A stretch of DNA of 64,000 bases from a virus (IMGVR_UViG_3300037512_001384:6442-70441); one strand, 5' to 3'; positions 1 through 18,308 are shown, counted from the stretch's first letter. The notes: a model not told the origin generated them from the letters alone. Made by a program: numbers and translations.

Positions 1-567
1 CAGGTCGCTCAGTTCCAGATTATGACCCGTGGCTTGATTCAGCTCGCCATACGTAGCGGTCAGTACCTCAGAATAACCAACGCCGTTGTACATGAGGGAG
101 AGCTTGTGAAGTATAACCCCTTCACTGATGACTACGAGTTTGACCCGACCAAACGCACAAGCGACAAGGTTATCGGTTATATGGCATACTTCCGTATGGT
201 TGACGGATATGAGAAGTATTTCTATATGACTGAGGCTGAAGTCCTGGCTCATGGCAAGAAATACTCCAAGTCTTTCAACTCCGGTCCTTGGAAGGACAAC
301 ACAGAGGCTATGTGTCTCAAGACCGTGATGAAGTTGCTCCTCTCCAAGTTCGGTATCCTGTCTATCGAGATGCAGCGTGCCATCAAGTATGACCAGGGTA
401 TCGCTAAGGGTGACTTCACTCAGATGGGTAGCGTCGAGGAGATTGACAATGCTGAAGTGGAATATGTCGATAACCCGGAAGAGAACAACAAGCCCGTTGA
501 AGAGAGCGCAGACAACAAGAAGGAAAGGATGCGCAAGGAAAAGAAGGAGAAACCGGAAATGCCGTAA
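1..567 (+). CDS. recT: RecT-family single-strand annealing protein (N-terminus upstream of window)
   Basis: Frame 1 is open from base 1. The core GYMAYFRMVDGYEKYFYMTEAEV..GPW..MCLKTVMKLLLSKFGILS resembles conserved RecT blocks. Charged K/E tail. Confidence 0.8.
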   Translation, partial: QVAQFQIMTRGLIQLAIRSGQYLRITNAVVHEGELVKYNPFTDDYEFDPTKRTSDKVIGYMAYFRMVDGYEKYFYMTEAEVLAHGKKYSKSFNSGPWKDNTEAMCLKTVMKLLLSKFGILSIEMQRAIKYDQGIAKGDFTQMGSVEEIDNAEVEYVDNPEENNKPVEESADNKKERMRKEKKEKPEMP

Positions 568-570
568 CGC

Positions 571-2658
571 ATGAACAAATACAGCAGCTACACTCCCGAT
601 GAGATGGATAACCTCCTGTCAGGTTATCTCATCGATTCATGGTCATACAGTAAGGTCAACACCTTCGCCCGTAACGAGAAGCAGTTTGAGAAGAACTTCG
701 TCTATCTCGAACCGGACAAACGCAGTATAAGCTCCATTGCCGGTAACGCCTATCACGAGGCGTTGAGGGTTTTCTTCATGGGCTACAATGAAGGTGCGAA
801 GAAGCCGGATCTTGTGGAGTTGTCAACGGTGGCATATAACTACATAGATGATGTTGACGCTAACACATGGAAGCTCAGTGATACTTATCCTTCCGTTGAC
901 CAGGCAAGAGAGCAATGTATCAAGATTGTCACTCTTCTGATTCAGAACTTCTGCGGCGAGTATGGTATCTATACCGACCATATAGCTGAGGTTCTGTCCG
1001 TCGAGGTCAAGGAAGAGTCTCTGGTGGTCTGCAACGGTGTCGATATCCCATTACCTCTGCATTATATTGCAGACCTTGTGATACGCACAAAGGACGGAAA
1101 GGTTGTCATCATAGACCATAAGAGCAAAAGCGCCTATACCGGTGACGATGAGGTCTCTCTTGTGCATGGTCAGCAGGCTATCGCTTACGTACTCGGATAT
1201 GAGCAGCATGACGAGAAGGATGACCGCCATGTAGATGAGGTCTGGTTCATCGAGAATAAGTATTCCAAGAACAAGAACGGCAGCGAGCAGCTTCGTCTGC
1301 ACCGTTTCGTGATGGATGAGGACTCACGCAAATTGCATGAGTATTATCTCTATCAGCCTCTTCGTCGTATGATAGAAGCTGTGGCTGATCCTGACTACAT
1401 CTACACAATCAACGCATCTGACAACCTTGCTGACAAGGCAGAGCTTTACGAGTTCTCGGCACGCACTCTGATTGCAGAGGTTGATGACTTCCCCAATATC
1501 CCGGAAAGGAAGAAGCCTCTGATAGAGAAACGTCAGCGTAAAATCAAGGACTCCAGCATCGCGATGATTTCACCGCGAGTCATACGTTCATTCAGAAAGA
1601 ATGCAGCATCGTTTATTACTTTCGACTATTCGCATAGCAATATGACAAACAAAGAAAAAATCGAACATAAGTTCCGTACCTTCGGCAAACAGGTTCAGGT
1701 AAGCCATGAGATAGAAGGATTCTCATGTAACACCTATCTGTGTGAGGTGGCGGCAGGCATACCCATCGCTTCTCTTAAGACATACGCGAAGGATATCGCT
1801 TACGCTCTTGATGTTCCGTCAGTACGTGTCGCTCAGGACCTGGTGGTACATGAAGGACGTTCTTATCTTTCCATAGAAGTGAGTAAGAAGAGTTCCGAGA
1901 TACTGGCATGGGATGCCAAATATCTTGAGGGTCATCGCATACCTCTCGGACTTGACAACTTCAAAGAGCCGGTAATATGGGATTTGGAGAACCATTCCAC
2001 TCCGCACATGCTTGTCTGTGGTGCTACCGGTTCCGGAAAATCCGTTCTTATCCGCTCTACTATCGCCTATGCCCTTCTCGCCAAGATGCGCGTTATCATC
2101 ATGGATCCCAAATACGAGTTCTCTGCATTCTCAGACAGATGTGAGGTTCATTCGGATATCGCAGACATAGAGAAACGCATGAAGGAACTTGTTGAGGAGA
2201 TGCAAGCCCGCAAGGGTACTTTCGGCGGTCTCACACTGATAGTATTCGATGAGTTCGCTGATGCAGTTTCATCGGCTCGTTCCGGCAAGGAGCTTGACAT
2301 CAGAGAGGAAGTGACAGTCGGTGAGTATAAGGATGGCAGACCGAAGAAGGAGTGGATTGTCACAGGACGTGACAAGAGTCTGGAAGAGAACCTGCAGATG
2401 CTCCTGCAGAAAGGTCGTTCTCTTGGTTATCGCATCCTGTCTGCCACACAGAGAGCTTCAGCCAAGGTTATCACAGGTGACGCCAAGGTCAATTTCCCAT
2501 GTATCTGTTGTTTCAGAGTACCCAAGGCTCTTGACAGTAAGGTTGTGATTGATGAGGATGGCGCACAAGCCCTTGCCGGTAACGGTGACGGACTGTTCAA
2601 GTCGCCTGAGTACATGGATCGTCTCGTGCGATTCCAGGGATTCTTCTATAAAGGATAA
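571..2658 (+). CDS. PD-(D/E)XK (RecB/Cas4-like) nuclease fused to an FtsK/HerA-type P-loop ATPase
   Basis: N-half: IADLV..VVIIDHKSK followed by HGQQAIAYVLGY (D..DxK plus QxxxY). C-half: Walker A CGATGSGKS, Walker B LIVFDEFAD, FtsK signature SATQRASAKVITGDAKVNFP. Starts 4 nt after the recT stop. Confidence 0.7.
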   Translation: MNKYSSYTPDEMDNLLSGYLIDSWSYSKVNTFARNEKQFEKNFVYLEPDKRSISSIAGNAYHEALRVFFMGYNEGAKKPDLVELSTVAYNYIDDVDANTWKLSDTYPSVDQAREQCIKIVTLLIQNFCGEYGIYTDHIAEVLSVEVKEESLVVCNGVDIPLPLHYIADLVIRTKDGKVVIIDHKSKSAYTGDDEVSLVHGQQAIAYVLGYEQHDEKDDRHVDEVWFIENKYSKNKNGSEQLRLHRFVMDEDSRKLHEYYLYQPLRRMIEAVADPDYIYTINASDNLADKAELYEFSARTLIAEVDDFPNIPERKKPLIEKRQRKIKDSSIAMISPRVIRSFRKNAASFITFDYSHSNMTNKEKIEHKFRTFGKQVQVSHEIEGFSCNTYLCEVAAGIPIASLKTYAKDIAYALDVPSVRVAQDLVVHEGRSYLSIEVSKKSSEILAWDAKYLEGHRIPLGLDNFKEPVIWDLENHSTPHMLVCGATGSGKSVLIRSTIAYALLAKMRVIIMDPKYEFSAFSDRCEVHSDIADIEKRMKELVEEMQARKGTFGGLTLIVFDEFADAVSSARSGKELDIREEVTVGEYKDGRPKKEWIVTGRDKSLEENLQMLLQKGRSLGYRILSATQRASAKVITGDAKVNFPCICCFRVPKALDSKVVIDEDGAQALAGNGDGLFKSPEYMDRLVRFQGFFYKG

Positions 2659-2663
2659 TCAAT

Positions 2664-3068
2664 ATGCAAGCAACTGGTAAGATTATAGCAATACTTGAAC
2701 CGCGTTCTGGCATTGCAAAGGCATCGGGCAATCCTTGGTTTATCCAAGGGTTCGTGCTTCAGACCGAAGAGCAATATCCGAAAAAGATACCATTTGAGGT
2801 ATCCGGTGAGGATAGAGTCAAGAACTTCAATATCCAAAAGGGTGAGACGCTGACCATCAGCTTCGATATTGACGCGAAAGAATGGAATGGAAAATGGATT
2901 CCTTCTATTCGATGCTTCAATATATCTCGTGGTGACGGTCAGCAGCAAGCAGCTCCGGCTCAAACGCAGAATCAGCAACCCGCACAACATGCTGCACCTG
3001 CACCGCAGGCACCGCCACCTGATCCGTTAGAGACCCAGGGAGGTGCAGATGATGATGTCCCCTTCTGA
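2664..3068 (+). CDS. DUF3127-type single-stranded DNA-binding protein with Q/P-rich linker and acidic DDDVPF tip
   Basis: MQATGKIIAILEPRSG..GNPW..QYPKKIPFEV..FDIDAKEWNGKW matches the Bacteroidota DUF3127 OB-fold pattern. The C-terminus ends DDDVPF, like the bacterial SSB tip. Confidence 0.75.
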   Translation: MQATGKIIAILEPRSGIAKASGNPWFIQGFVLQTEEQYPKKIPFEVSGEDRVKNFNIQKGETLTISFDIDAKEWNGKWIPSIRCFNISRGDGQQQAAPAQTQNQQPAQHAAPAPQAPPPDPLETQGGADDDVPF

Positions 3069-3133
3069 TTAGGATATGTCATTCATAGCCCGGTTAGGCT
3101 TGGTTGTCTCTCCGGGCACTAAAAGTGTTTTAC

Positions 3134-3418
3134 ATGAACGCAATAGATTTCACTCAGAAATACTCCTATGAGTTCATCCTTAAGCCTCCTCAAACCCTCG
3201 ATTATGAGGAATACAATGTTGATTGGTTCCTCACCCCTCGCGGTGACATGATGTGCAGGCGCGGCGGTTATGAAATATCGTCAGACATTCTGAACCGCCA
3301 ACACTGGCTGTGGTTTCTTGCAGAAAAACGTTGGTTTGACGCCAACACATTTCTTCCCGCCTATTTTGAGGCTTGTCGCAGAGCTGGGATAGAGAAAATT
3401 GAGATGAGGATAAGGTAA
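3134..3418 (+). CDS. hypothetical protein
   Basis: ORF-track ORF trimmed to the first ATG (MNAIDF). Preceded by hairpin GCCCGG..CCGGGC. Confidence 0.4.
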   Translation: MNAIDFTQKYSYEFILKPPQTLDYEEYNVDWFLTPRGDMMCRRGGYEISSDILNRQHWLWFLAEKRWFDANTFLPAYFEACRRAGIEKIEMRIR

Positions 3419-3424
3419 TTAACA

Positions 3425-4258
3425 ATGAAAGATTCATTTGTTTTTCATAAAGACTGGTACTTAGCCTTAAAAGGGTTAGACGTTCAAGACAAAGTTGAGG
3501 TCTATGAAGCTATAATGAGCAAAATATTTGATGGTGTAGATAAGAAACTTTCGCCTGTTGCACAGATGGCAATGAATTTTATTTCGCCACAAATTGAAAG
3601 GGATGTTGAACGTTATAATTCCATTTGTGAGCAACGCAAACTATTTGGTAGTAAGGGCGGTATAGCAAAAGCTACCAAAAGCTACCAAAAGGTAGCAAAA
3701 GGTAGCAAAAGCAAGCAAAAGGTGGCAAGTGTAGCTGATAATGATAATAATATATCATCTTCTACTAACGTAGAATCTGATAATGATATTATAGATATAG
3801 AAGTAAAAGATAAATCTTTTCCTTCTAAGAAAAAAAATAAATTATTTATACCGCCTACATTAAACGAAGTAGAGGCGTATGTAAAAGAAAAAGGCTATCA
3901 TTTCAGCGCCAAGGCATTCTTTGACTATTACGAAGCGGATGACTGGCATTACGGCAAAGGCAGTAATAGAACAAAGATATCGAACTGGAAGCGCTGTTGT
4001 GCCACATGGGAGGAGCGGCGTACTACAAGTAATAATATACCTCGTGAACCCGCATCGTTGTTTGATAACCATACTCCCGAACCGGAAGACGAACAGACTT
4101 TATTACAGAAAGCATACGAAGAACTGAACGACACCCAGGAGGCTGAGATATACGGAATGGTCCCCTATGAGTTTCACATGCTGAATGAGAACGGCAAGAA
4201 ATATTGGCGCGAAGTTTACAAGGAAAAGATGCTTGATTGGATCAAGAGCAACAGATGA
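3425..4258 (+). CDS. putative replication initiator / replisome organizer
   Basis: The N-terminal domain (FHKDWY..RKLFGSKGG) and the W-rich C-terminal block (FFDYYEADDWHYGKG..ISNWKRCCATWEERR) resemble phage replisome-organizer proteins. The central linker is encoded by iteron-like repeats plus an AT-rich tract. Confidence 0.45.
   Translation: MKDSFVFHKDWYLALKGLDVQDKVEVYEAIMSKIFDGVDKKLSPVAQMAMNFISPQIERDVERYNSICEQRKLFGSKGGIAKATKSYQKVAKGSKSKQKVASVADNDNNISSSTNVESDNDIIDIEVKDKSFPSKKKNKLFIPPTLNEVEAYVKEKGYHFSAKAFFDYYEADDWHYGKGSNRTKISNWKRCCATWEERRTTSNNIPREPASLFDNHTPEPEDEQTLLQKAYEELNDTQEAEIYGMVPYEFHMLNENGKKYWREVYKEKMLDWIKSNR
3661..3730. repeat. seven phased 10-bp units each ending AAAA (iteron-like array inside the organizer gene)
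   Basis: tatagcaaaa gctaccaaaa gctaccaaaa ggtagcaaaa ggtagcaaaa gcaagcaaaa ggtggcaagt. GCTACC and GGTAGC are inverted relative to each other. Confidence 0.85.
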
Positions 4259-6150
4259 GCGACAATATTCTTTATGTAGAGGATTTCAGACACGTCTTAG
4301 GCAGCAGGTCATCAGGTAACATAAAAACCTTCTGTCCTTTCTGCCATGAGAATCGTGGAAACAAGAGGGATAAATCCCTTTCGATAAACTGCGCGACCCT
4401 GGCATATAACTGCCATTATTGCGGTGCGAGCGGTTATCTGAAATCCCGGCATGAGGAAATGATGCGGAGAATAGACAGGGAAACAAGACAGATGTCCAAG
4501 ACTTATCGCAAACCCTCGGTCAAGCCCAACCTTCAACCTAAGCTCAATGCGGACATGGTTGAGTATTTCAAAGGGCGCGGCATCAGCGAGAAGACACTTC
4601 TTGAGGCGAAGGTCACAAAGGAGAATTTCTTTTTCCCGCAAGACAATTGCAAGCGCGGATGTATCGCTTTCAACTACTATGTTGATGACGAGCATATCAA
4701 CACCAAATATCGCACAAGGGACAAGCATTTCGCATTCATTGCCGGTGCCAAGGTAGTCCCCTATAACATAGACAGCATAAGAGAGAGCGCATTCAAGAAG
4801 GGTGAAAAGAAAATCTGCATCATCACTGAAGGTGAAGCGGATACTCTCACTTATATCGAATGCGGCTATAAGCATGTCATATCCATGCCGTCCGGTGCTA
4901 ACACCAATCTGGAATGGATGGATGACTTCACCGAATCCCACTTTGATAAACTTGAACTGATTTATGTATCGACAGACAGTGACAAGAAGGGTGTTGAAGC
5001 CAAGAATGAGATAGTACGAAGGTTTGGAGCTGAAGTATGTAAGATAGTTGAGTATCCGGAAGACTGCAAGGATATAAACGAGGTTCTTGTCAAATATGGA
5101 CCGGAGAAGGTAAAGGAATGCTTCGAGGGTGCTGCGGATATTAGAATCCAAGGTGTCGAGGAACTTGTTGACATAGAGTCAGACCTTGACAACCTGTTTA
5201 CTTCGGGACTTCAAAAGGGAGTAACCCTGGGATTGGAGGATATGGATAAACTTCTGTCCTTCAATACCGGAATGGTGACGGTCGTTACAGGAATCCCTTC
5301 GCACGGCAAAACCCAATGGTTGAATTTCGCTCTGATCAGACTCAATATCCTTCACTCATGGAAGGTGGCGTTCTTCTCTCCTGAGTTCTATCCTGTAGCG
5401 CTGCATATATCCCAAATCATAGAGACGCTTGGAGGTAAAAGGTTCTCATCCCAGAACTATACGCCTCAGACTTACGGCATCCTGAAGGAGTATGTCAACA
5501 AGAATTTCTTTTGGGTGGATCCTGATGACACGGATATAAGCTCAGTCTTGGACAGAGCCAAGTTCCTCATCCGCAAGAGAGGTATCAAGGCGTTTGTGAT
5601 TGACCCTTTCAATTCGCTGACAGACGAGAAGCGAACGATATACAAGCAGGATGAATATATTTCGGACTTCCTGCAGAAGATACGATGGTTCGCCAGGAAG
5701 TATGACGTTGCAATGTTCATCGTCATGCATCCCACCAAACAATACAAGCAGGATAACGGCTTATATCCGGTCTGTGACCTGTACTCATGTAAGGGTGCAT
5801 CTGAGATATACGACAAGGCTGATATCGGCATCACCGTATGGAGAAACGAGCAGGGTAATTACGGTGAGGTGCATGTGACCAAGATGAAGTTCCGTCACAT
5901 GGGACAGAAAGGACATGACACTTTCGTCTATAACTTCAATAACGCCCGGTTCGTTGAGATTCCCACTATGGACGCGAAGCGTGTGGCTCCCGACATGGAT
6001 AAAGTGAAGTGGGATAACAGCAATTATGTAATTGAGAATATCAAGACGCAGCAGAATCAGCAGGAATTGGATTTTGGAGCGGAGCAGCCGGAAACACCAC
6101 ATAATGAAAAACCCTTTGATGCGCCGATAGACGAAGATATCCCGTTCTGA
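4255..6150 (+). CDS. bifunctional primase-helicase (zinc finger + TOPRIM + DnaB/RecA-like helicase, T7 gp4-like)
   Basis: CPFC..CHYC zinc motif, TOPRIM ICIITEGEADTL and DSDKKG, Walker A GIPSHGKT. Start taken at the ATGA overlap with the preceding stop. Ends DEDIPF. Confidence 0.85.
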   Translation: MSDNILYVEDFRHVLGSRSSGNIKTFCPFCHENRGNKRDKSLSINCATLAYNCHYCGASGYLKSRHEEMMRRIDRETRQMSKTYRKPSVKPNLQPKLNADMVEYFKGRGISEKTLLEAKVTKENFFFPQDNCKRGCIAFNYYVDDEHINTKYRTRDKHFAFIAGAKVVPYNIDSIRESAFKKGEKKICIITEGEADTLTYIECGYKHVISMPSGANTNLEWMDDFTESHFDKLELIYVSTDSDKKGVEAKNEIVRRFGAEVCKIVEYPEDCKDINEVLVKYGPEKVKECFEGAADIRIQGVEELVDIESDLDNLFTSGLQKGVTLGLEDMDKLLSFNTGMVTVVTGIPSHGKTQWLNFALIRLNILHSWKVAFFSPEFYPVALHISQIIETLGGKRFSSQNYTPQTYGILKEYVNKNFFWVDPDDTDISSVLDRAKFLIRKRGIKAFVIDPFNSLTDEKRTIYKQDEYISDFLQKIRWFARKYDVAMFIVMHPTKQYKQDNGLYPVCDLYSCKGASEIYDKADIGITVWRNEQGNYGEVHVTKMKFRHMGQKGHDTFVYNFNNARFVEIPTMDAKRVAPDMDKVKWDNSNYVIENIKTQQNQQELDFGAEQPETPHNEKPFDAPIDEDIPF

Positions 6151-6688
6151 TCAAGACATACTTTATAGGCATATTATATTTCTTAGAGCCATGCATTATG
6201 GTATCCTTGCGACCGTCATAACCGGTTGCTATCTCCTGTATGGCTTCATGGTCAAAGAAATACTTCTCCTGTTTTGACATCAGGAATATATATTCATGTG
6301 CCTTCGTACAGCGGTCTTTGATGCTTTCGGGCTGCGGATTCAGCTTATGCCAGATGATGTCATTTCTCAGACGGAATCCGATACGGTCTCTTAGTGCGAA
6401 AGCCGCCATCCAGGGAATACCGATAAGACTTTTTGCATTGTCATAGCTATCTCCGAGGTTCAGCCAGAGCGTTCCTTCCGGTTTAAGAACGCGAAACACT
6501 TCCGTGAATACTTCGGTGAGTCTGTCGATATACTCTTCTGGTGACTTCTCCAGACCTATCTGACCGTCAATACCGTAGTCTCGCAGATTGAAATATGGCG
6601 GTGAGGTGACACAGCAATCAACGCAGTTGTCAGGAAGGCTTTTCATTCCGGTGAGGCAGTCTTCATTGAAAACTTTGTTGATTTCCAT
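6041..6688 (-). CDS. N-terminal half of a beta-class N4/N6 DNA methyltransferase (SPPY motif IV), separated from its 3' half by inversion
   Basis: MEINKVFNEDCL..DCCVTSPPYFNLRDY..LWLNLGDSY..NDIIWHK..HEYIFLMSK. Methyltransferase similarity stops at the repeat (6163-6175). The rest of the ORF is read-through antisense to the primase-helicase gene. Confidence 0.75.
   Translation of the reverse strand: MEINKVFNEDCLTGMKSLPDNCVDCCVTSPPYFNLRDYGIDGQIGLEKSPEEYIDRLTEVFTEVFRVLKPEGTLWLNLGDSYDNAKSLIGIPWMAAFALRDRIGFRLRNDIIWHKLNPQPESIKDRCTKAHEYIFLMSKQEKYFFDHEAIQEIATGYDGRKDTIMHGSKKYNMPIKYVLIRTGYLRLSAHQRVFHYVVFPAAPLQNPIPADSAAS
6163..6175. repeat. left inverted repeat of invertible segment 1 (TTATAGGCATATT)
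   Basis: Perfect reverse complement of 6692-6704. An imperfect extension brings it to about 20 bp. Confidence 0.9.
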
Positions 6689-6691
6689 TAC

Positions 6692-6704
6692 AATATGCCT
6701 ATAA
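6692..6704. repeat. right inverted repeat of invertible segment 1 (AATATGCCTATAA)
   Basis: Reverse complement of 6163-6175. Contains the ATG (6695) of the downstream ORF, in the same codon phase as the N-half. Confidence 0.9.
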
Positions 6705-7108
6705 TGCCTTCGGGTAACAGGCAGACGATGGCTACGCACGGGCATCAGCGATGGAGGTTCAAGAACCTTCAGGATGATGGACAGCAACCCAATTCGATGC
6801 ATATCAGACGTGCTGCCGGATTGCCGGACCAGCAATATCCGGTCAGAAACAAAAGGGATGTATGGAGTGTAGCCACCAAACCTGAGAAGGCGGCTCATTT
6901 CGCTGTCTATCCCGAAGAGCTCATCAGACCTTGCATCCTTGCCGGATGTCCGAAAGGTGGCCTGGTGCTTGACCCGTTTATGGGAAGTGGCACGACAGCC
7001 AGGGTCGCCCGTAAGTACAATCGCAACTTCATAGGGTATGAACTGAACCCTGAATATATCAAGATTATCAATCAGAAGACGGTGGTGACACCGGACTTGT
7101 TCTCATAG
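6695..7108 (+). CDS. C-terminal half of the same beta-class DNA methyltransferase (AdoMet-binding motif I)
   Basis: RNKRDVWSVATKP..AHFAVYPEELIRPCI..VLDPFMGSGTTARVA..GYELNPEY. No motif IV on this strand. Confidence 0.75.
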   Translation: MPIMPSGNRQTMATHGHQRWRFKNLQDDGQQPNSMHIRRAAGLPDQQYPVRNKRDVWSVATKPEKAAHFAVYPEELIRPCILAGCPKGGLVLDPFMGSGTTARVARKYNRNFIGYELNPEYIKIINQKTVVTPDLFS

Positions 7109-7114
7109 AAACCT

Positions 7115-7141
7115 ATTGTTTAACTAAATATCTATAGTATG
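7115..7141 (+). promoter_or_regulatory. plus-strand copy of the conserved leader motif (ATTGTTTAACTAAATATCTATAGTATG)
   Basis: Same motif and ATG spacing as the roughly 30 minus-strand cassettes at 27-45 kb. Confidence 0.5.
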
Positions 7142-7648
7142 GCAGGTTTAAGAAGTAGAAGTGGTTTTTGGATGGAAGCAACCATCGAGATCACAGAGAC
7201 AACCCCCAAAGGGTTGCCAAAGACAGTGAGAGAACGCTACACAGTTGAGGCAGCGTCATTCATTGACGGTGAGGAGAGAATCCGCAAGGAGCTCAACTAC
7301 TCCAACCGTCCTATCAAGACCGTGAGCGGTATGTTGCGCCCCAAGTACGGTGAGATTTGTTTCTCTGATGACGCAGCAGCTGAGAACTGGTACAAGGTTA
7401 AGGTTGATATGAAGGAGGAGGTAGAGGTAAGAACCCGTAAGGGTGGCACCCGCACCAAGACCAAGACCGTATCGCACTATTATCTTGTCCAGTCTGACTC
7501 CAACGAGAACGCTCGCAAGGCAATCGGTGACGAGATTTACAAGGGTTCAAACGCCGACTATGAGATAGCCGATGTCGTGAAGACCCGTATCCTGGATGTG
7601 CTGGAGAAGGATAAGCATCTGAAGAGTGCTGAGAAAAAGGAAAATTAA
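7139..7648 (+). CDS. DUF4494-like protein
   Basis: FWMEATIEI..YTVEAASFIDGEERI..WYKVKVDM..YYLVQSDS fits the Bacteroidota DUF4494 pattern. The start is supported by the leader motif. Confidence 0.55.
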   Translation: MAGLRSRSGFWMEATIEITETTPKGLPKTVRERYTVEAASFIDGEERIRKELNYSNRPIKTVSGMLRPKYGEICFSDDAAAENWYKVKVDMKEEVEVRTRKGGTRTKTKTVSHYYLVQSDSNENARKAIGDEIYKGSNADYEIADVVKTRILDVLEKDKHLKSAEKKEN

Positions 7649-7669
7649 CCGTACACCATTTTGTTGTTG

Positions 7670-7712
7670 GAAAGCCCTATGCCGTGCCATTGCGGTGTAG
7701 GGCTTTCTTTTT
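7670..7712 (+). terminator. rho-independent terminator
   Basis: GAAAGCCCTA..TAGGGCTTTC stem followed by TTTTT. Confidence 0.8.
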
Positions 7713-7722
7713 GAGAGAAGGG

Positions 7723-8202
7723 ATGAATACGTATGTAATTACTTTATCACAGACTTTCCCTGTGACACATAAACGCGCCGGTGAGCCCACCGACTTCGAG
7801 CATAAGTTCACCGCCGCGACCCACAAGTGGCTTGACCATTGGTGGAAGCGTCATACCATTCGTGCCAATTACGAATTATGGCGTAAGCGCTTTGAAAAGA
7901 TAGATGCCGGTCAAGCCCAGCTGTCTATACGTCAGTGGTCAGGTAAGCCTTACGCTTCCAAACAGGTTCAACTGGCTGTGCTCACCAAAGCTGACGGCAT
8001 CGGAATACAGAAACTGCAGTTCGATGTTGACAGGGATGGTATGCATTCCTTGAACCTGATAGAGATTGACGGCAAATCCGTAAGCAAGGAGCTTCTGGCA
8101 TATAACGATGGGTTGAAAATTGAGGATTGGATGGAATGGTTCCGTCGGTATGACCTCTCCAAACCTCTGGCTGTAATTCATTTCACAAGCATCAGGTATT
8201 AA
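7723..8202 (+). CDS. hypothetical protein
   Basis: ORF trimmed to MNTYVITL, downstream of the terminator. Confidence 0.5.
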   Translation: MNTYVITLSQTFPVTHKRAGEPTDFEHKFTAATHKWLDHWWKRHTIRANYELWRKRFEKIDAGQAQLSIRQWSGKPYASKQVQLAVLTKADGIGIQKLQFDVDRDGMHSLNLIEIDGKSVSKELLAYNDGLKIEDWMEWFRRYDLSKPLAVIHFTSIRY

Positions 8203-8222
8203 CGATTATATCTGTCTGGGTT

Positions 8223-8681
8223 ATGCACAAACACAACTATTTCGTATCGGTTTTTGTTCACGGTAGGCATGTCAACTCGTATTTCAGCGAGGATCTTGAT
8301 GACCTCGTAACCATAAAGGTTATGAATGGTCCGGACTGTGAGCTGTCGATATTCGACATTAGCCGGTTTGTGCTTCTTACAGCCGAGCAGGTGGAGATAG
8401 AGATAGTCAAATCCAGGAACAGATGGAAGAAATCCCTGGAGAAACATATCGAAGAACCTCCTGAAGAGCCGATTGAGGAGGAGGTGGAGGAGAAACCGAA
8501 GAAGAGCTATGTATGGAAACGACCTGTGTTGTGCGTTGAGACCGGACAGGTATTCAAGTCCATACGTGAATGCTCGGATAAGGTTGGTATCCCATATATG
8601 ACAATAACCAATTGTATCAAGAACAAGAACGCCACGAGAGGCGTTCATTTTATTCAACTTGAAGAAGACGAGACGGAGTGA
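8223..8681 (+). CDS. hypothetical protein with C-terminal helix-turn-helix-like module
   Basis: VLCVETGQVFKSIRECSDKVGIPYMTITNCIKNK resembles small DNA-binding modules. The fully overlapping minus-strand ORF looks non-coding. Confidence 0.5.
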   Translation: MHKHNYFVSVFVHGRHVNSYFSEDLDDLVTIKVMNGPDCELSIFDISRFVLLTAEQVEIEIVKSRNRWKKSLEKHIEEPPEEPIEEEVEEKPKKSYVWKRPVLCVETGQVFKSIRECSDKVGIPYMTITNCIKNKNATRGVHFIQLEEDETE

Positions 8682-9118
8682 TGAGACAGAAAACGATAGT
8701 CTTTGCCGTCATAGCAATGACGTGTGCCGCATTCATAGTGCTGCTTGGCGAGGCATGGCCGTTGATCCCCTTCATCTTGGCCGTATGGTGCGCAGTCAGA
8801 TGCTTCAATATAGAGAACGACCATGAGCCCTTTGACCGGGTGATTGCCGCCATGAGTGAGGCGAGCGGATTGGATACAGACTCGCTTCTTAAGAACACCA
8901 ACAAAAGGGACATCGTGTCATGCCGTTATCTGCTGTTCCTCTTCCTGTATGACAAATGGGAGTGGACAACGGGGCAGATAGGTCGTGCGTTCGGACGCGA
9001 CCATTCGACCGTGACTTACGGCATCAAGAGAGCCCGCGACTTCCTGTCGTTGGCATCCTACAAGAAAGAACAAGACATCTATGCCAAATTCCTGGCACAG
9101 ATACACAATATGGAGTAA
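8678..9118 (+). CDS. membrane-anchored protein with DnaA domain-IV-like HTH
   Basis: N-terminal hydrophobic helices. C-terminal WTTGQIGRAFGRDHSTVTYGIKRARD resembles the DnaA C-terminal DNA-binding domain. Confidence 0.5.
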   Translation: MMRQKTIVFAVIAMTCAAFIVLLGEAWPLIPFILAVWCAVRCFNIENDHEPFDRVIAAMSEASGLDTDSLLKNTNKRDIVSCRYLLFLFLYDKWEWTTGQIGRAFGRDHSTVTYGIKRARDFLSLASYKKEQDIYAKFLAQIHNME

Positions 9119-9292
9119 GCTAACTGGCATTTCTTTTTTATTTGGTTTATCCGGTCCCGTATGCAGTGATGTATGCGCGGCGGGTCTGCAGACGATGTGG
9201 TGCGGAGGTTTCTGGATTCGTTAGTTACTTGGAAGTAAAGTCATCTGCAGCAAGCGGGGCGGTTTGACAGCCTCCCCGCTGACTATATGGTC

Positions 9293-9363
9293 GGTCGTAT
9301 GGCGTAATGGTAGCGCAACAGACTTTGGTTCTGTGTGTCCCGGTTCGATTCCAGGTACGACTA
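9293..9363 (+). tRNA. tRNA-Gln (anticodon UUG)
   Basis: Manual cloverleaf: acceptor GGTCGTA/TACGACT (G1-U72), anticodon stem ACAGA/TCTGT, loop CTTTGGT, T arm CCCGG-TTCGATT-CCAGG (one C-A mismatch). No encoded CCA. Confidence 0.8.
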
Positions 9364-9374
9364 CAAATTATTTC

Positions 9375-9464
9375 AGGGGAAATAAAACCTGAATCGGGGA
9401 AATTTTATCGCCCCAAAATGTGAGAGAAAGGCAATATTGGGAAATCAAAGGAAAATTTCCCCTG
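9375..9464. repeat. 10-bp inverted repeat CAGGGGAAAT / ATTTCCCCTG with internal GGGGAAAT-like copies, followed by a T-run
   Basis: Arms at 9375-9384 and 9455-9464. Related copies at 9395-9404 and 9438-9446. TTTTT at 9465-9469. Confidence 0.7.
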
Positions 9465-9498
9465 TTTTTCAGGTCAAACGGAACAACAAGAAAACAAC

Positions 9499-9909
9499 AT
9501 GATAGATAACCCTTATGACAGCAGAGACCCGCGTTTCGAGCCTGATCCCATACCGGTAGGTTTTATGAAGACGGTCATAGTCACCTTAAGCAAGGAGGTT
9601 AAACTTGAAACCACCGCCTATGAGGACCACATTGATTGTGACGGTAAAGGTTACTGCACTGAGATTGTCGGCGAGACCGATTGGGAACAGGTGTTCAAGG
9701 ATGAGCACAGGACCATACCGCAGCTTCTTGAACTGCTTGAGAAAGAGTGTGAGCGTAAGAAACAGGCGTTGGAGAGATACTTCGGTGTCCTGGAGTGCCA
9801 GGGTGAGAAACCCACAAAGGAGCTGCTGGATAAGAAGAGATACTGGGAGAGTGTCATTGAGGACTGCCGTAACTGGAAGGTTGACGAGATAGACATTGAT
9901 GATATTTGA
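9499..9909 (+). CDS. hypothetical protein
   Basis: ORF-track ORF in the rightward gene train. No motif recognised. Confidence 0.5.
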   Translation: MIDNPYDSRDPRFEPDPIPVGFMKTVIVTLSKEVKLETTAYEDHIDCDGKGYCTEIVGETDWEQVFKDEHRTIPQLLELLEKECERKKQALERYFGVLECQGEKPTKELLDKKRYWESVIEDCRNWKVDEIDIDDI

Positions 9910-9915
9910 TGACCT

Positions 9916-10176
9916 ATGGACGAGATTCAAAGAGAACAATTAAGAGCTGTTGAAATAGCCTTATGTTCCATTAACGGGTATGTAGCACGAGACAAAGACG
10001 GTTCACTCTGGTTTCATTACAAAGAACCCCATAAGGAGAATGACATTGAGGAAACATGGTGGGGAAGTAACGATAAAGCATTTGAGATATTTGACAGCGA
10101 CTTTCCTCAGTTCAAGGATTTGCGTTGGCCGCAAGAGCCGGTTAAGGTTCAATTAGCGATACAGTTGAGTCAATAG
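9916..10176 (+). CDS. hypothetical protein
   Basis: ORF-track ORF in the rightward gene train. Confidence 0.5.
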   Translation: MDEIQREQLRAVEIALCSINGYVARDKDGSLWFHYKEPHKENDIEETWWGSNDKAFEIFDSDFPQFKDLRWPQEPVKVQLAIQLSQ

Positions 10177-10178
10177 AT

Positions 10179-10403
10179 ATGGAACCAAAATACATAGATT
10201 TCGGGGTTGCACCTTATGCCCTGCCTGATGTCTGTGAGGCATTATACAACAACGGGATAACCAATGGATTCCTCACTGTCGAAGACGGCGATATTCATGT
10301 TAGATGGCAATATGACATCAACCGCAAATCCAAACATCACGCAAAAACAAACGTCGATGGCTGCAATGAACAATCAGAAAACAAAGGCAAGCAGGATTCC
10401 TGA
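10179..10403 (+). CDS. hypothetical protein
   Basis: ORF-track ORF starting 3 nt after the previous stop. Confidence 0.4.
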   Translation: MEPKYIDFGVAPYALPDVCEALYNNGITNGFLTVEDGDIHVRWQYDINRKSKHHAKTNVDGCNEQSENKGKQDS

Positions 10404-10806
10404 GCTGAACGTAACCAATGAAGTTCCCCCCAAGACCGTCATCAAACACATGGCGCGTGAGAGGGGTAAACTTCTCGCCTATATCGATGAGCTTGAGGAA
10501 AAGCTCAAACGTAAGGACGAAGCCATTGCCGAGTTCAAGAAATGGCAAGCCAAGGTCGCAGATTACAAATGGCACTATTGGCTGAGCGAAGGCATCAAGC
10601 TCATGGAGGAACCGCCAGACAAGACCATGCTTAACGCGCTGAAGCATCTGTTGGGTTGTCACCGGATCTTCGACGAGTGGCAGAAAAAGGTGGTCAACGC
10701 ATGGGAGCAATACAAGAAAGCCAAGGAGAAGTTTAAGAACGCTCTGGAGGCTCAGAATAAAACTGAAAAGAAAGAAACATCACAAGATGGAAAAGATACC
10801 GTTTAA
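10357..10806 (+). CDS. hypothetical coiled-coil protein (start uncertain)
   Basis: ORF 10264-10806 trimmed to an internal ATG. Alternative starts at 10312 or 10450. Confidence 0.4.
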   Translation: MAAMNNQKTKASRIPELNVTNEVPPKTVIKHMARERGKLLAYIDELEEKLKRKDEAIAEFKKWQAKVADYKWHYWLSEGIKLMEEPPDKTMLNALKHLLGCHRIFDEWQKKVVNAWEQYKKAKEKFKNALEAQNKTEKKETSQDGKDTV

Positions 10807-11374
10807 CCCCAAATTCAGACCGCAGATTGAGTCCGGCGAATACCGTGTCGAGACCCGTTGCGGCTATCCGGTGCAGATTGTCTGTTGGAATCTCCGAGAC
10901 ACCAAGCATGAGGATGATACTCATAAACGCACCATACTTGGTCTTATAGACTGTGGCGACGGAACATTCGGACATGAGGTATTCAACTCAGAAGGATTAT
11001 ACATGCCGATTGCACAATCCAATATGGATTTGTTTGTCGTGACGGAAAATGTGCAACTGACGAAGTTCGAGAGCCGCTTATGTGAGATTCTTGATTACGC
11101 AATGCGTCACCCTGAAGATTCTCCAAATGCGATAATCTCTGTTGTCAAGCAGAAACTTTCTCCTGAGCTGATGGATTTAGCCCGAAAGGAGATAAAGACA
11201 GACGGTCCGAAATGGAGGATGGCTAAAGCCGGTACACGATTCGATAGCGATGCTGTTATTGTCGGCATAGGTGACGATAAGGACCCAAGGCTTGTAAGAT
11301 GTGCCGTGAATGACTGTTGGTATATCTTGGTGAAGGACCTGGTAGAGAAACTTACAAGTGAATTATCATTATGA
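10787..11374 (+). CDS. hypothetical protein
   Basis: ORF-track ORF. Confidence 0.5.
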   Translation: MEKIPFNPKFRPQIESGEYRVETRCGYPVQIVCWNLRDTKHEDDTHKRTILGLIDCGDGTFGHEVFNSEGLYMPIAQSNMDLFVVTENVQLTKFESRLCEILDYAMRHPEDSPNAIISVVKQKLSPELMDLARKEIKTDGPKWRMAKAGTRFDSDAVIVGIGDDKDPRLVRCAVNDCWYILVKDLVEKLTSELSL

Positions 11375-11952
11375 AACCTAAAGTTAAATTCTTGGAAGTA
11401 GGACGATATGTCCGTTGGATGTCACCCGAAGGTTACATGATGGCGGGTAAGATACTGGATGCGCCGGGAACGAACCGACAGAACCAATCAGTCTATCCCA
11501 TAGAACTTCTCAACGGCACCAAAACTGCCGTCAACGCCGATAAGCTGGAGGTGATCCCCAACTCACGAAAGAATATGTCTGCATCCGGCAAGCTGGCGCT
11601 TAAGAAAGAAATAGAAAACATAAACAATATGAAGAAAGGAAACAACCCCAATCAGAACGGAGGTATAGACCAGACCGCGTTACTCAAGGCTCGTGAAGCA
11701 GAGATAAGCGACCTGAAAGATAATCTCTCTCGTGGCAAACAGGAGTATGCAGAACTGCAGGCGAAGTTCGACGAGCTATCCAAGATGCGTGAGGAAACGC
11801 CTGTTAAGATTGATGTCATCCGCTCAGTCACCGAAGAGTTAAAGCAGTTGGTAAACGACCTTCTGTCCGACGAACAAGGTGAGACTGTGGAAACGAAAGC
11901 TGTGGCTCGTGGTCTGCTTCCGACTATCTATAAACTTGTAACACTGTGCTGA
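11371..11952 (+). CDS. hypothetical coiled-coil protein
   Basis: ATGA overlap with the previous gene. Confidence 0.5.
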   Translation: MKPKVKFLEVGRYVRWMSPEGYMMAGKILDAPGTNRQNQSVYPIELLNGTKTAVNADKLEVIPNSRKNMSASGKLALKKEIENINNMKKGNNPNQNGGIDQTALLKAREAEISDLKDNLSRGKQEYAELQAKFDELSKMREETPVKIDVIRSVTEELKQLVNDLLSDEQGETVETKAVARGLLPTIYKLVTLC

Positions 11953-11964
11953 CATTAAACAGCA

Positions 11965-12438
11965 TTGACTGCCATGTTTGACTTGGAGAAACTGAAAGAT
12001 AATAACTGCATCTTTTGGGTGTTCATGTGGCCGGAGATACGCAGGGTTGCTTATGAACACGGCTGGGCTGTTGCCTTGCACGGCTCAATAGTACATGACC
12101 TTGACCTTATGGCGATGCCCTGGGTTGAGGAGCATTCTTCTGCCGACGTCCTTGCAGAGAAACTGTCTGAGGTTATCGGTACGAAATATGATGCGCCGAA
12201 GCGTGTCGCCAAGGATGATGGCGGAAAACCCAATAACAGGGTTGTCTATACCATCATATCCGGTCAGACATGGATTGACCTCAATGTCATCAAGGAGGTT
12301 GAGCCGCATGAAATGACATGGCAGGACATCGAGAAGATAGTCAGCATTGCTGATGCACTTGTCCATGACAAGAAGTTTACCAACACCAAAGAAGGTTATT
12401 ATACTGAGATACTTGAACGATTCAAAAAAGAGAAATAA
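11965..12438 (+). CDS. hypothetical protein
   Basis: ORF-track ORF. Confidence 0.5.
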   Translation: MTAMFDLEKLKDNNCIFWVFMWPEIRRVAYEHGWAVALHGSIVHDLDLMAMPWVEEHSSADVLAEKLSEVIGTKYDAPKRVAKDDGGKPNNRVVYTIISGQTWIDLNVIKEVEPHEMTWQDIEKIVSIADALVHDKKFTNTKEGYYTEILERFKKEK

Positions 12439-12439
12439 C

Positions 12440-12895
12440 ATGTGTGATAATGTTATGTGCGGTGATAACCGCTTTCAGATCATAGCTGCCGCGAAGAAGG
12501 ATATGCTGGAGAAAACCAACATTGAAACCTCAGAGGACGAGATGAAGGTGTTGGACAACTTCCTATTCCGTTGTTGGCAGATGGGATGGCTTGAGAAGTA
12601 TAACAGCACCTCTCACGCTATCACGGAAGAAGTTCGTGATGCGGCGATAGACTTCTTCAAATATCAGCCTGAACCCAACCGTTCGCGGCTTATCGAACAG
12701 GCTATCCTTGGTGCCGAATGGAGGTACTTGAACAAAGATAAGCCCTATGAGGCTATGTACCGAGAGAAAGATATCAGATATCCGATACCCGAAGGTGGTC
12801 GCACCTACGCTGCGGCAATGGATTGCAGTGCCTTTGAGTATGGCGCAGGGCTTGCTTATGAGTTCATAAGACGTAAACACAAGGAGAAAGTATGA
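12440..12895 (+). CDS. hypothetical protein
   Basis: ORF 12347-12895 trimmed to MCDNVMCG, directly after the previous stop. Confidence 0.5.
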   Translation: MCDNVMCGDNRFQIIAAAKKDMLEKTNIETSEDEMKVLDNFLFRCWQMGWLEKYNSTSHAITEEVRDAAIDFFKYQPEPNRSRLIEQAILGAEWRYLNKDKPYEAMYREKDIRYPIPEGGRTYAAAMDCSAFEYGAGLAYEFIRRKHKEKV

Positions 12896-13029
12896 AAGTG
12901 TTGTTTATTATAATCATTGCCGTGGTGTTCCTCTTGCTTCTCAACAACATGGATGACCGGTTGCTGTACATAGAGAACTACCTGCGTCAGATCAAGGATT
13001 TGCTTCACGAAATCAAGAGCAAGTTATGA
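12892..13029 (+). CDS. small membrane protein (45 aa, not in ORF track)
   Basis: MKVLFIIIIAVVFLLLLNN.. hydrophobic helix. ATGA overlaps at both ends. Confidence 0.45.
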   Translation: MKVLFIIIIAVVFLLLLNNMDDRLLYIENYLRQIKDLLHEIKSKL

Positions 13030-13205
13030 GAATCATTCAATCTACTATAATCATCGACGAGAAACTGCCGGACATCATGGTGCAGTTCAAAGCCGACAAT
13101 AATGTGACGGTCTGGGATGATTTGTCACGCGAGGAACAGATAGCCGCGCTTAACGCTATGGCTGGTACTTGTTCTCTGTTTTCAAAAAACATAAAGAAAC
13201 CATAA
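13026..13205 (+). CDS. hypothetical protein (59 aa, not in ORF track)
   Basis: MRIIQSTIIIDEKLPD..; overlapping start and stop codons with both neighbours. Confidence 0.4.
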   Translation: MRIIQSTIIIDEKLPDIMVQFKADNNVTVWDDLSREEQIAALNAMAGTCSLFSKNIKKP

Positions 13206-13543
13206 TGAAAATCAACTATAAGGAGATACCCCCAACCGTCCGAATCGGGGGGGCGAACATCGAGATTCGTCAGGTCGAGAGATGTTCGAGTAATAACCTC
13301 GGAGAATGCTGCATCGCAGGCAGCTACATCGAGATTGCCGAGAAATTCGACAAGTGTGACCAGCAGAGCCAAGATAGCAAGCGCAACACTTTCTATCACG
13401 AATTGACTCATGCTATTCTCGATACTATGGGTGAGACTACGCTGAGCAGGAACGAGAAGTTCGTATGCGGATTCTCCAGCTTCCTGTGCGAAGCTATGAC
13501 CCACGCACGCTTTCAGGTTATGGAAGAAGACAACCAAGAGTAA
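13205..13543 (+). CDS. putative zinc metallopeptidase (HExxH)
   Basis: FYHELTHAIL motif. ORF trimmed to MKINYKEI. Confidence 0.5.
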   Translation: MKINYKEIPPTVRIGGANIEIRQVERCSSNNLGECCIAGSYIEIAEKFDKCDQQSQDSKRNTFYHELTHAILDTMGETTLSRNEKFVCGFSSFLCEAMTHARFQVMEEDNQE

Positions 13544-13554
13544 TCATCTGAACA

Positions 13555-14334
13555 ATGGGTACAAAAATAGAGTGGACCAACAAGGTATGGAATCCCGTAT
13601 CGGGCTGCACTAAGGTCAGTGAGGCTTGCCAGAACTGTTATGCTGAAGTGATGGCAAGACGTCTGAGCGGAATGCCTGGCAGCAAGGAGAAATACAAGGA
13701 TGGATTCAAGGTGACGATTCACCCGGAAAGCCTCTATGAGCCTTACAAGTGGAAGAAACCATGCATGGTCTTCGTTTGCTCTATGGGCGACCTGTTCCAT
13801 GATGATGTTCCTATCCAGTTCATTGACGAGGTGATGAACGTGATCAGCGAGAATCCGCAGCACACGTTCCAAATTCTCACCAAGCGGGCTGGAGCGATGT
13901 ATTCATATTTTCAACATGAGGATGTTCCGAAGAACGCATGGCTCGGTGTCACCTGCGAGAGTGCCAAACATTATGACAGGGTGAGTCTTCTCCGTGATAT
14001 TAACCGTGTGAGTCTTCTCACCGATTTCCATAGCAAGACTGTCAAGTTCCTGTCATGCGAGCCTCTGTTGGGTGACATGGCGGATATAAACCTTGACGGT
14101 ATTGATTGGGTGATTACAGGAGGCGAAAGCGGTTCGCGAGCCCGAAGGACACCGATTGAATGGTTTCGGAATCTTCGTGACAGGTGTGTCGAGACCGGCA
14201 CGCCTTTCTTTTTCAAGCAATGGGGTGCGTTCGGCCCGGATGGTATCAAACGCAGCAAATATCTGAACGGTTCTGTACTGGACGGTCAGCAGTGGAAACA
14301 GATGCCACTTATAAAGCAAGACGATAATGATTGA
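13555..14334 (+). CDS. phage Gp37/Gp68 family protein (DUF5131)
   Basis: IEWTNKVWNPVSGCTKVSEACQNCYAEVMARRL N-terminal signature and GGESG block. Contains an in-frame 27-bp duplication (RVSLLRDIN/RVSLLTDFH). Confidence 0.7.
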   Translation: MGTKIEWTNKVWNPVSGCTKVSEACQNCYAEVMARRLSGMPGSKEKYKDGFKVTIHPESLYEPYKWKKPCMVFVCSMGDLFHDDVPIQFIDEVMNVISENPQHTFQILTKRAGAMYSYFQHEDVPKNAWLGVTCESAKHYDRVSLLRDINRVSLLTDFHSKTVKFLSCEPLLGDMADINLDGIDWVITGGESGSRARRTPIEWFRNLRDRCVETGTPFFFKQWGAFGPDGIKRSKYLNGSVLDGQQWKQMPLIKQDDND

Positions 14335-16063: not shown

Positions 16064-16392
16064 ATATTATTTGTATGACAGAGGAGTTCTGGGCGAACTC
16101 ACAATTCAGCGTAGCAAGATATTATGGACGTATAGGAATTGACGGGCATGATTTCTTGATTGTAAACAAGGAAGGTAAGGATGTGTTCCAGTGTTCCGCC
16201 GAAGCAGAAAAGGATGGTCGTGAACATGCCATTGAGCCGGGTGAACCTGCAGACCTTTGCCGTTCTGATTTCGTCAAGTATTACAAGGAACTCAAACGTG
16301 ACAGATTCCTTGAAGTGTTGCGCGAGAATCCCAATGCCAGCGATAAGGAGCTATTAGAAATATTCAAACAACTGACAGCAAAGAAGAAATGA
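16060..16392 (+). CDS. hypothetical protein
   Basis: ATGA overlap with the methyltransferase stop. Confidence 0.5.
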   Translation: MNIICMTEEFWANSQFSVARYYGRIGIDGHDFLIVNKEGKDVFQCSAEAEKDGREHAIEPGEPADLCRSDFVKYYKELKRDRFLEVLRENPNASDKELLEIFKQLTAKKK

Positions 16393-16526
16393 AGTGCTAT
16401 TTCAACAACCGGACAGTGAATGATAGTGTTTGTTCTTCCTGTACGCTAAAGAATGAATGTGTTGCTTATAACACACGGCAGACAGAGCATGTCAGTTCCG
16501 GAACCCCAGTAAACGTTTATATATGA
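16389..16526 (+). CDS. small Cys-rich protein (45 aa, not in ORF track)
   Basis: MKCYFNNRTVNDSVCSSCTLKNECVAYN..; ATGA overlaps at both ends. Confidence 0.35.
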   Translation: MKCYFNNRTVNDSVCSSCTLKNECVAYNTRQTEHVSSGTPVNVYI

Positions 16527-18304: not shown

Positions 18305-18308
18305 AATA

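Follow-up and report, generated by a model that had tools for sequence, protein, structure and literature searches.

Why does a phage genome carry a DNA methyltransferase gene in two pieces that face in opposite directions? The gene lies near the start of a 64,000-nucleotide stretch of viral DNA (IMGVR_UViG_3300037512_001384:6442-70441; the whole stretch is called the window below), and a first-pass annotation, made from the sequence alone, had interpreted the arrangement as an ON/OFF switch that works by DNA inversion and was captured in its OFF position. Here we find that both orientations of this segment, and of two further segments in the window, are present in natural populations of the same strain. 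We conclude, with a probability of about 85%, that this phage has at least three site-specific inversion switches (invertons), to which the split methyltransferase belongs. The parts of the first of them, switch 1, are the following (contigs and loci compared with the window carry L numbers).

6160-6177, no strand: left site of switch 1, ACTTTA-TAGGCA-TATTAT, which holds the 13-bp arm 6163-6175 and is an inversion break point relative to L104 and L105
6163-6704, no strand: invertible segment of switch 1, 542 bp, in the OFF orientation; L104 is 100% identical in reverse, with its flanks forward
6176-6688, minus strand: N-terminal 171 codons of a beta-class N4/N6 DNA methyltransferase, with motif IV (SPPY), opposite in direction to the operon; PF01555 positions 1-133
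6690-6707, no strand: right site of switch 1, ACAATA-TGCCTA-TAATGC, within the reading frame (codons N-M-P-I-M), with a spacer that reads as the reverse complement of the left one
6704-7108, plus strand: C-terminal remainder of this methyltransferase, with motif I (DPFMGSGTT), a 134-amino acid gene call whose ATG is inside a half-site; PF01555 positions 113-220

The two arms form a perfect inverted repeat, TTATAGGCATATT at 6163-6175 being the reverse complement of AATATGCCTATAA at 6692-6704, and they can be extended to 16 nucleotides with one mismatch. Translation of the minus strand from 6688 to 6176 yielded the 171 amino acids that had been described, TSPPY included, and this open reading frame (ORF) extends as far as 6041, overlapping the last part of the primase-helicase gene in antisense. 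On the plus strand, only the C-terminal part is encoded from 6695 onwards, with DVWSV and DPFMGSGTT; the 134-amino acid gene call, which starts at 6704, is on record, and the 137-amino acid version from 6695 is without a record. The earlier statement that neither fragment is a complete enzyme is borne out by the portions of the PF01555 profile that they cover, as listed above.

Reversal of 6163-6704 in silico gave, as predicted, a single ORF of 309 amino acids whose ATG lies 28 nucleotides past the primase-helicase stop codon. The joined protein aligned colinearly with PF01555 over positions 1-220 of 221 (E = 1e-56). It has the motif order of the beta class, with motif IV SPPY at residue 29 preceding motif I DPFMGSGTT at residue 265, and it also matches solved beta-class enzymes, the conserved blocks being residues 6-169 and 224-300. 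The internal arm of the repeat corresponds to codons 172-177, at the start of the non-conserved stretch between these two methyltransferase blocks. Caution had been advised in reading SPPY as a sign of N4-cytosine specificity, and rightly: the solved relatives of the joined protein comprise both N4-cytosine enzymes (8s9m, 1boo) and N6-adenine enzymes (6pbd, 1g60), with similar scores that do not split the base specificity. Among NCBIfam families, the joined protein gave CcrM-like matches that were far under the cut-off.

A search of a protein collection with the joined sequence retrieved two natural counterparts, P0001 (309 amino acids, 100% identical) and P0002 (99% identical). P0001 is encoded on L104 (ENA ERZ27257203), which is 99.99-100% identical to window positions 6035-13793 and has exactly 6163-6704 inverted; P0002 is encoded on L105 (Logan SRR17418320), which is in the ON orientation and 95-99% identical to window positions 7-17115. 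The OFF form with an identical 134-amino acid C-terminal fragment occurs in four contigs, L143 and L144 (99-100% identical) among them; the four probably include the window's own contig, ERZ27256849 k141_4620388 (107,074 bp). The strain-level tally for switch 1 is OFF in four of the six contigs that cover it. From the first base of L104 to the inner end of the left arm the distance is 141 nucleotides, exactly one MEGAHIT k-mer, and such a start would be the expected product of an assembly-graph branch at the switch. The proposal of an inversion switch caught in its OFF state is thus supported by a natural ON protein and by a contig that carries the segment inverted.

The 13-bp arm proved to be part of an 18-bp site, ACAWTA-N6-TAWTGT, in which two 6-bp dyad half-sites enclose an asymmetric 6-bp spacer. 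Dyad half-sites around an asymmetric spacer are the core layout of tyrosine recombinases, as in lox, FRT and dif, and the sites in question show the features of such a core, namely inverted half-sites and an asymmetric overlap, within the range of 6-8 bp, that is identical in partner sites. Alignment of 25 distinct sites from outer to inner end gave the consensus RC[A/G/T]WTA-N6-TAWTGT, with no conservation beyond the 18 bp and no arm-type flanks. An ATG is intrinsic to the half-site consensus TAATGT at all sites, including the intergenic ones. The first-pass caveat that a lone 13-mer inverted repeat is not rare was well placed: the window has five such pairs with arms no more than 1 kb apart, where shuffled sequences yield about 0.9. 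The 18-bp pattern, ACAWTA-N6-TAWTGT, is present in five perfect copies in the window, against 0.1 expected from shuffles, whereas control loci, 614 kb of unrelated sequence, contained none. Of the seven sites in the window, six pair up as neighbours, giving three pairs whose spacers are exact reverse complements. Across the window, L126-L130, L138 and L150, the spacers are identical within each pair and private to it, none being common to two switches; since they are private, the switches are expected to flip independently. The remaining sites of the window and the genes that they enclose are given below.

20757-20774, no strand: left site of switch 2, ACAATA-TCATTC-TAATGT, with the start codon of the cassette in the TAATGT half-site; break point in L111
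20771-21745, plus strand: PAPS-reductase-like (PP-loop) gene, a whole-gene cassette (PF01507, phrog_424), co-directional with the operon; inverted in L111
21739-21756, no strand: right site of switch 2, ACAATA-GAATGA-TATTGT
21772-21789, no strand: left site of switch 3, ACAATA-TGTGGG-TATTGT
21799-22455, minus strand: 218-amino acid N6_N4 DNA methyltransferase, a whole-gene cassette (PF01555, phrog_67), against the operon and presumed OFF; co-directional in L111 and L112
22468-22485, no strand: right site of switch 3, ACAATA-CCCACA-TAATGT, at which several public contigs end
45493-45510, no strand: orphan perfect site, ACAATA-CAATTA-TAATGT, with a near-palindromic spacer

The cassettes of switch 2 (20757-21756) and switch 3 (21772-22485) are only 15 bp apart, and both are inverted in L111, a contig from the sample of L104 that is at least 99.7% identical to window positions 16668-31006 and whose alignment pieces overlap by exactly the 18-bp sites. 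Switch 3 is also inverted in L112, and L106-L108 keep the other orientation for comparison (identities 99-100%). Three more contigs, L109, L113 and L114, stop exactly at 22468, beyond which the two orientations of switch 3 no longer share sequence; these ends, together with the start of L104, are signs of mixed orientations within samples. Next to switch 3, the start codon of a non-invertible 252-amino acid N4/N6 methyltransferase abuts the site 22468-22485. The orphan site had no partner within the 83 kb of contig examined. It is located in an AT-rich intergenic region of 900 bp that separates divergent modules, with a D5_N/DUF5906 primase-like gene downstream of it, and its 18-mer has 12 exact matches among viral contigs, all of them unrelated and about half in AT-rich genomes.

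The first-pass annotation had asked whether related genomes share the split without the repeats. The relatives, which come from IMG/VR, JGI, ENA, NCBI and Logan assemblies, were checked for this, and those that share the split retain the repeats, occur in both orientations and have co-varying arms. Relatives with approximately 65-80% amino acid identity carry sites at homologous positions, in the ON (colinear) state in L001, L024-L029 and L126-L131 and in the OFF (inverted) state in L007, L008, L010 and L071, counts that are biased in that the loci were retrieved with the full-length protein. L001 and L008, which are about 93% identical, differ by a clean inversion of the 660 bp bounded by the repeats. 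The spacer of switch 1 exists in four versions (CAGGAA, CAGGTA, TAGGAA and TAGGCA), and both arms have always changed together. Homologues at 62% identity or less are colinear and without repeats. A blastn 'distant' search of GenBank phages with window positions 5600-7700 found remote methyltransferase similarity only and no close relative. The OFF-state left site of L008 (2668-2686) reads GCATTA-CAGGAAT-TAATGT, in which an extra T makes a 7-bp spacer; this is either a locked-OFF mutant or a sequencing error.

Both halves of the methyltransferase are, judged by substitution patterns, under strong purifying selection. The proportion of synonymous differences (pS) was 0.5-0.96, with one pair at 0.37 and synonymous sites saturated, against 0.05-0.16 for nonsynonymous differences (pN), and the ratio of nonsynonymous to synonymous rates (dN/dS), where calculable, was 0.04-0.16 for both halves, including a pair in which both members are OFF. 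No OFF copy contains a stop or a frameshift, and re-inversion of L007 and L010 in silico at their own sites gave ORFs of 346-347 amino acids. The low dN/dS and the ORFs restored by re-inversion therefore argue that the OFF copies are not decaying pseudogenes. In one relative, L149, an insertion of about 680 bp (1769-2454) lies within the N-terminal half of the N4/N6 methyltransferase, and the C5 methyltransferase of the relatives is broken up (in L126, 11889-12945), with some 1 kb between the two ORFs that match PF00145; these interruptions could be introns, homing elements or other inserts.

The relatives contain further switches. The first ~85 codons of the C5 methyltransferase gene that follows the switched methyltransferase form a second inverton of a 5′ half, with the spacer TCTTTG, in L024-L026, L028, L032 and L126-L130 (for example, L126 11043-11323), and L127 and L129 have this 283-bp segment in the opposite orientation to L126, with 98.9% identity. 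In L126 (19419-20395), L138 (15301-16327) and L150 (9381-10356), an entire radical-SAM gene (phrog_9298) forms a cassette adjoining the PAPS-reductase cassette. The radical-SAM cassette is inverted in L129, and the relatives also switch the PAPS-reductase gene. Every gene under the control of the 18-bp site looks like a DNA-modification gene, and the pairing of PP-loop and radical-SAM genes hints at a DNA hypermodification pathway under switch control.

These arrangements suggest how the system could work. A recombinase, most likely of the tyrosine type, would exchange strands across the 6-bp spacer and thereby invert the DNA between paired sites. Given that one site of switch 1 is just upstream of the start codon and the other is in frame within the poorly conserved linker that follows the catalytic N-terminal block, inversion would either take the start codon and the first 171 codons off the sense strand of the early operon (OFF) or restore the 309-amino acid enzyme (ON). 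At switches 2 and 3, whole genes lacking promoters would be flipped and would be expressed only when they match the direction of the long plus-strand operon. Three switches would allow up to 8 modification states, and the additional switches of the relatives would allow more. The outcome may be a form of bet-hedging, in which some progeny escape restriction-modification and others escape methylation-dependent restriction, such that combinatorial phase variation of phage DNA modification would be the likely function. A fuller version of this proposal posits a 2^n array in which one simple tyrosine recombinase acts on spacer-orthogonal 18-bp sites to set different combinations of active modification enzymes (N4/N6 and C5 methyltransferases and the PAPS-reductase/radical-SAM genes), and in which a single lysogen or burst gives progeny with different epigenetic coats as a counter-defence against hosts that vary in both kinds of restriction; we put it forward tentatively, as slightly short of an even bet.

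Which enzyme might catalyze the inversions? The window encodes a candidate and its constant neighbour.

26668-27510, minus strand: 280-amino acid tyrosine recombinase, candidate invertase (PF00589, E = 2e-12; catalytic R135, H225, R228, H251 and Y261 read from the sequence)
27697-29073, minus strand: FtsK/SpoIIIE-like translocase, constant neighbour of the 280-amino acid recombinase

In Pfam, the 280-amino acid recombinase matches the catalytic domain only, with no arm-binding or SAM-like domain, whereas the lysogeny module encodes, ~11 kb upstream of switch 1, a 378-amino acid integrase in which arm-binding and SAM-like domains accompany the catalytic one. The NCBIfam matches of the smaller enzyme at E <= 0.001 were XerA, XerD and XerC only, at 24-38 bits against cut-offs of 220-335, and no invertase family was among them; it is a distant tyrosine recombinase rather than a Xer orthologue. 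Because the sites have no arm-type flanks, we favour the 280-amino acid enzyme as the leading candidate for the invertase. A homologue is encoded on a 117.5-kb contig, 4-6 kb from similar cassettes. The module of recombinase and FtsK-like protein was found both with and without nearby sites in viral contigs and in a protein database, and neither phage recombinase showed a co-occurrence link to the sites. It is a matter of speculation that the orphan site serves as a resolution site for the 280-amino acid recombinase and the FtsK-like protein. In the relatives, the counterpart of this FtsK-like protein has 891 amino acids and a ddrB-ParB domain. A second FtsK/SpoIIIE-like protein, distinct from that at 27697-29073, is encoded at 571-2658; it is fused to a PDDEXK nuclease domain and adjoins RecT. 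Among the Pfam families listed for the genes called in the window and 10 kb on either side, there was no serine recombinase (Resolvase/Recombinase) family, and a serine-invertase system of the Hin/Gin/Cin kind was rejected for this reason.

Other explanations of the split gene have to be weighed against programmed inversion. The source of the window is a metagenome assembled from short reads (MEGAHIT k141, ERZ27256849), and assemblies of this kind can mis-join at repeats, so that the segment might have been mis-oriented at a short inverted repeat and no such molecule might exist. The repeat measures 13-18 bp, however, whereas the k-mer was 141 for the ENA contigs and is 31 for Logan contigs; it is far shorter than these k-mers, and the assembly graph therefore cannot collapse at it. 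Moreover, independent assembly produced the OFF form at least four times, in contigs of several samples, and the ON form in other contigs; among diverged relatives from JGI, ENA, NCBI and Logan, too, both states occur, and these relatives have site versions of their own. All this leaves an artefact with a practically negligible chance. Hardly more credible is a one-off rearrangement, by illegitimate or replication-slippage recombination at a chance inverted repeat, that became fixed and left two decaying pseudogene fragments. Short inverted repeats can indeed drive rare inversions independently of a recombinase, and the chance frequency of a lone 13-mer within 1 kb has been noted above. Genomes that are 99.99-100% identical nevertheless differ in orientation, and do so at three separate loci, from which it follows that flipping is much faster than point substitution; lineages that have diverged by ~30% keep the switch, with sites that are maintained and co-vary; the two halves have the low dN/dS values already given, with the OFF copies intact; and a single 18-bp dyad layout, of which the control DNA has no copy, is common to all sites. 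A more elaborate possibility is that inversion is programmed but not a simple ON/OFF control, in that the OFF form yields a useful product, either the 134-amino acid fragment as an S-adenosylmethionine (AdoMet)-binding protein or a re-tailed N-terminal fragment, or in that the segment carries a promoter or terminator that acts on downstream genes. In keeping with this, every OFF copy keeps an in-frame ATG in its TAATG half-site, the C-terminal fragment is called as a gene, the OFF state prevails in the strain tally, and intragenic invertons that recode or truncate proteins have been described in Bacteroides (bioRxiv 10.1101/2023.03.11.532203). Yet the ATG belongs to the half-site consensus everywhere, and its presence is therefore no evidence of design. 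The tail of the N-terminal fragment is unconserved, being 40 amino acids in the window and ending at a stop within ~3 codons in L007, L008 and L010; the full PF01555 profile is spanned by the joined protein and by neither fragment; and the flipping of whole genes at switches 2 and 3 fits plain orientation control. No promoter or terminator signal around the switches stood out above background in scans that are of limited value here, the sigma-70 model being unfit for Bacteroidota. We therefore consider such an alternative product improbable.

The identity of the catalyst is a more evenly balanced matter. The inversions could be site-specific and yet be catalysed by the 378-amino acid integrase or by a recombinase of the host, the 280-amino acid enzyme acting with the FtsK-like protein in dimer resolution or partition. 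Homologues of the recombinase and the FtsK-like protein occur in related phages (L125, L139, L141 and L163) that have no cassettes and no sites within 10 kb, which implies another or an additional job for the module. Of five large relatives that were sampled, three (L126, L129 and L130) encode an integrase of the 378-amino acid length ~10 kb upstream of switch 1, much as in the window's phage, and Bacteroidales genomes encode many invertases. The arm-binding domain of the 378-amino acid integrase, on the other hand, is typical of directional integrases and the sites lack conserved arm-type flanks, and reliance on a host enzyme fits poorly with half-sites kept across phages that are ~30% diverged. 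On balance we regard a different catalyst as a realistic possibility that falls somewhat short of even odds. The absence of sites near the module in those four phages, and the fact that the integrase or a host enzyme could be the invertase, also count against our overall interpretation, as do several other points: the 6-bp half-sites are short for a tyrosine-recombinase core site; equating orientation with expression state is an assumption that the promoter and terminator scans do not strengthen; the benefit of switching methyltransferases off, like their target sequences, is hypothetical; and the case for switching inside one clonal population is built only on where contigs break and on near-identical genomes that come from different samples. 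Taking these together with the evidence above, we prefer the reading that the window carries at least three site-specific inversion switches.

The source appears to be a temperate phage of roughly 107 kb that infects rumen-type Bacteroidaceae, and the names of the samples point to rumen data sets; a relative resides on a 182-kb contig of a Bacteroidaceae metagenome-assembled genome from red deer. Its genes include a large terminase (55360-58107), a 2,422-amino acid protein past the window's end, a GH108 lysin, RecT, RusA, ArdA, a C5 methyltransferase and a lysogeny module. The phage is rich in anti-restriction genes besides the switched ones (13555-16063, 22487-23245 and 39005-39997): they encode a DUF5131 protein, a C5 methyltransferase of 578 amino acids, the non-invertible 252-amino acid N4/N6 methyltransferase and ArdA. 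The minus strand between 29000 and 45200 carries ~30 small ORFs, among them ArdA and proteins with LPD11 or LPD28 domains. Some 20 of these small ORFs share a conserved leader of ~27 nucleotides up to the ATG, GTTTAACTCTTAAATACTACGATTATG-like, which looks like a repeated promoter or translation-initiation element. The structural module has a G+C content of ~0.53, against ~0.45 for the early, replication and modification modules, with the rise near window position ~46000.

That bacteria vary their DNA methylation by phase variation is well established, and the programmed inversions of phages are classically tied to tail fibres and host range. Here, inversion is applied to the phage's own DNA-modification genes, by several independent switches, across widespread phages of ~100 kb in ruminant-gut Bacteroidaceae, and one phage lineage probably yields progeny with different DNA-methylation patterns. 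Such variation might solve the problem that a methyl mark protecting from the restriction enzyme of one host exposes the DNA to the methylation-dependent nuclease of another. The switches also break metagenome assemblies at predictable points and lead annotation pipelines to call active genes as fragments, and the compact 18-bp site, with its spacer-encoded orthogonality, is a possible recombinase tool. The earlier remark that no phage methyltransferase was known to be controlled by inversion agrees with the full-text literature searched, a corpus that takes in few subscription journals, and the same literature gave no description of a switch array with a shared site and private spacers. A 2026 paper on metagenome-assembled viral genomes of the human gut presents its own candidates as the first putative invertons from such genomes and says nothing of methyltransferases (PMC13501310).

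How does the array compare with known systems? In gut bacteria, gene-altering ('partial intergenic') invertons are established (Milman et al. 2023, PMC9881135), intragenic invertons have been described (Chanin et al., bioRxiv 10.1101/2023.03.11.532203), and methyltransferase invertons are also on record (PMC11741434, PMC9881135). As in the gene-altering invertons, one arm of switch 1 is outside and the other inside the coding sequence, and both orientations coexist; bacterial invertons often target restriction-modification or methyltransferase genes, and Bacteroidota are rich in such elements. The switches reported here differ in being phage-borne, in removing the 5′ half of a gene rather than exchanging a domain, in combining several switches with a shared 18-bp site and private spacers, and in targeting the phage's own orphan modification genes. 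The hsdS 'epigenetic invertons' of Type I restriction-modification systems (PMC7672463; B. fragilis, PMC7641763) and the phasevarions driven by simple sequence repeats likewise vary methylation by genome rearrangement and create epigenetically distinct subpopulations. In those systems, a cellular restriction-modification methyltransferase is changed or switched, altering host gene expression or defence, whereas the phage toggles orphan methyltransferases, a PAPS-reductase-like gene and, in relatives, radical-SAM genes, presumably for counter-defence. A specificity switch of the hsdS type was considered for the present locus and rejected on this ground, as what is toggled are orphan phage methyltransferases and other modification genes.

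Among phages, the nearest parallels are the G segment of Mu with Gin, the C segment of P1 with Cin, and Min of p15B, which are also phage-borne programmed inversions that create phage subpopulations. In these systems, serine invertases work with an enhancer on 26-bp sites that have a 2-bp core, and what is switched are tail-fibre genes and hence host range. By contrast, the sites reported here look like tyrosine-type cores, the targets are DNA-modification genes, and no serine recombinase was seen in the window and its 10-kb surroundings. The RecV system of C. difficile, the fim system of E. coli (FimB/FimE) and the Tsr-type systems of Bacteroides resemble the phage array in pairing a small arm-less tyrosine recombinase, which is a candidate in our case, with short inverted repeats and several independent switches. 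They mostly flip promoters, and their repeats differ between loci; in the phage, genes or gene halves are flipped, and the half-sites are common to all sites while only the spacer varies. The R64 shufflon, with Rci and its sfx sites, shares with the array a tyrosine recombinase (again a candidate here), adjacent invertible segments and sites that are partly in coding sequence. Recombination among its sites can shuffle the alternative C-terminal segments of a single gene, whereas the private spacers of the phage make independent binary toggles of separate genes the expectation; we rejected a shufflon because each pair has its own spacer and the cassettes are unrelated genes in the window, L126-L130, L138 and L150. 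In its logic only, with no homology claimed, the array resembles the heterospecific lox and FRT designs of FLEx or Brainbow type, in which one recombinase acts on identical arms, the spacer specifies the pairs and inverted pairs flip as independent binary switches. The engineered sites are man-made, with 13-bp arms and 8-bp spacers, whereas those of the phage are natural, with 6-bp arms and 6-bp spacers.

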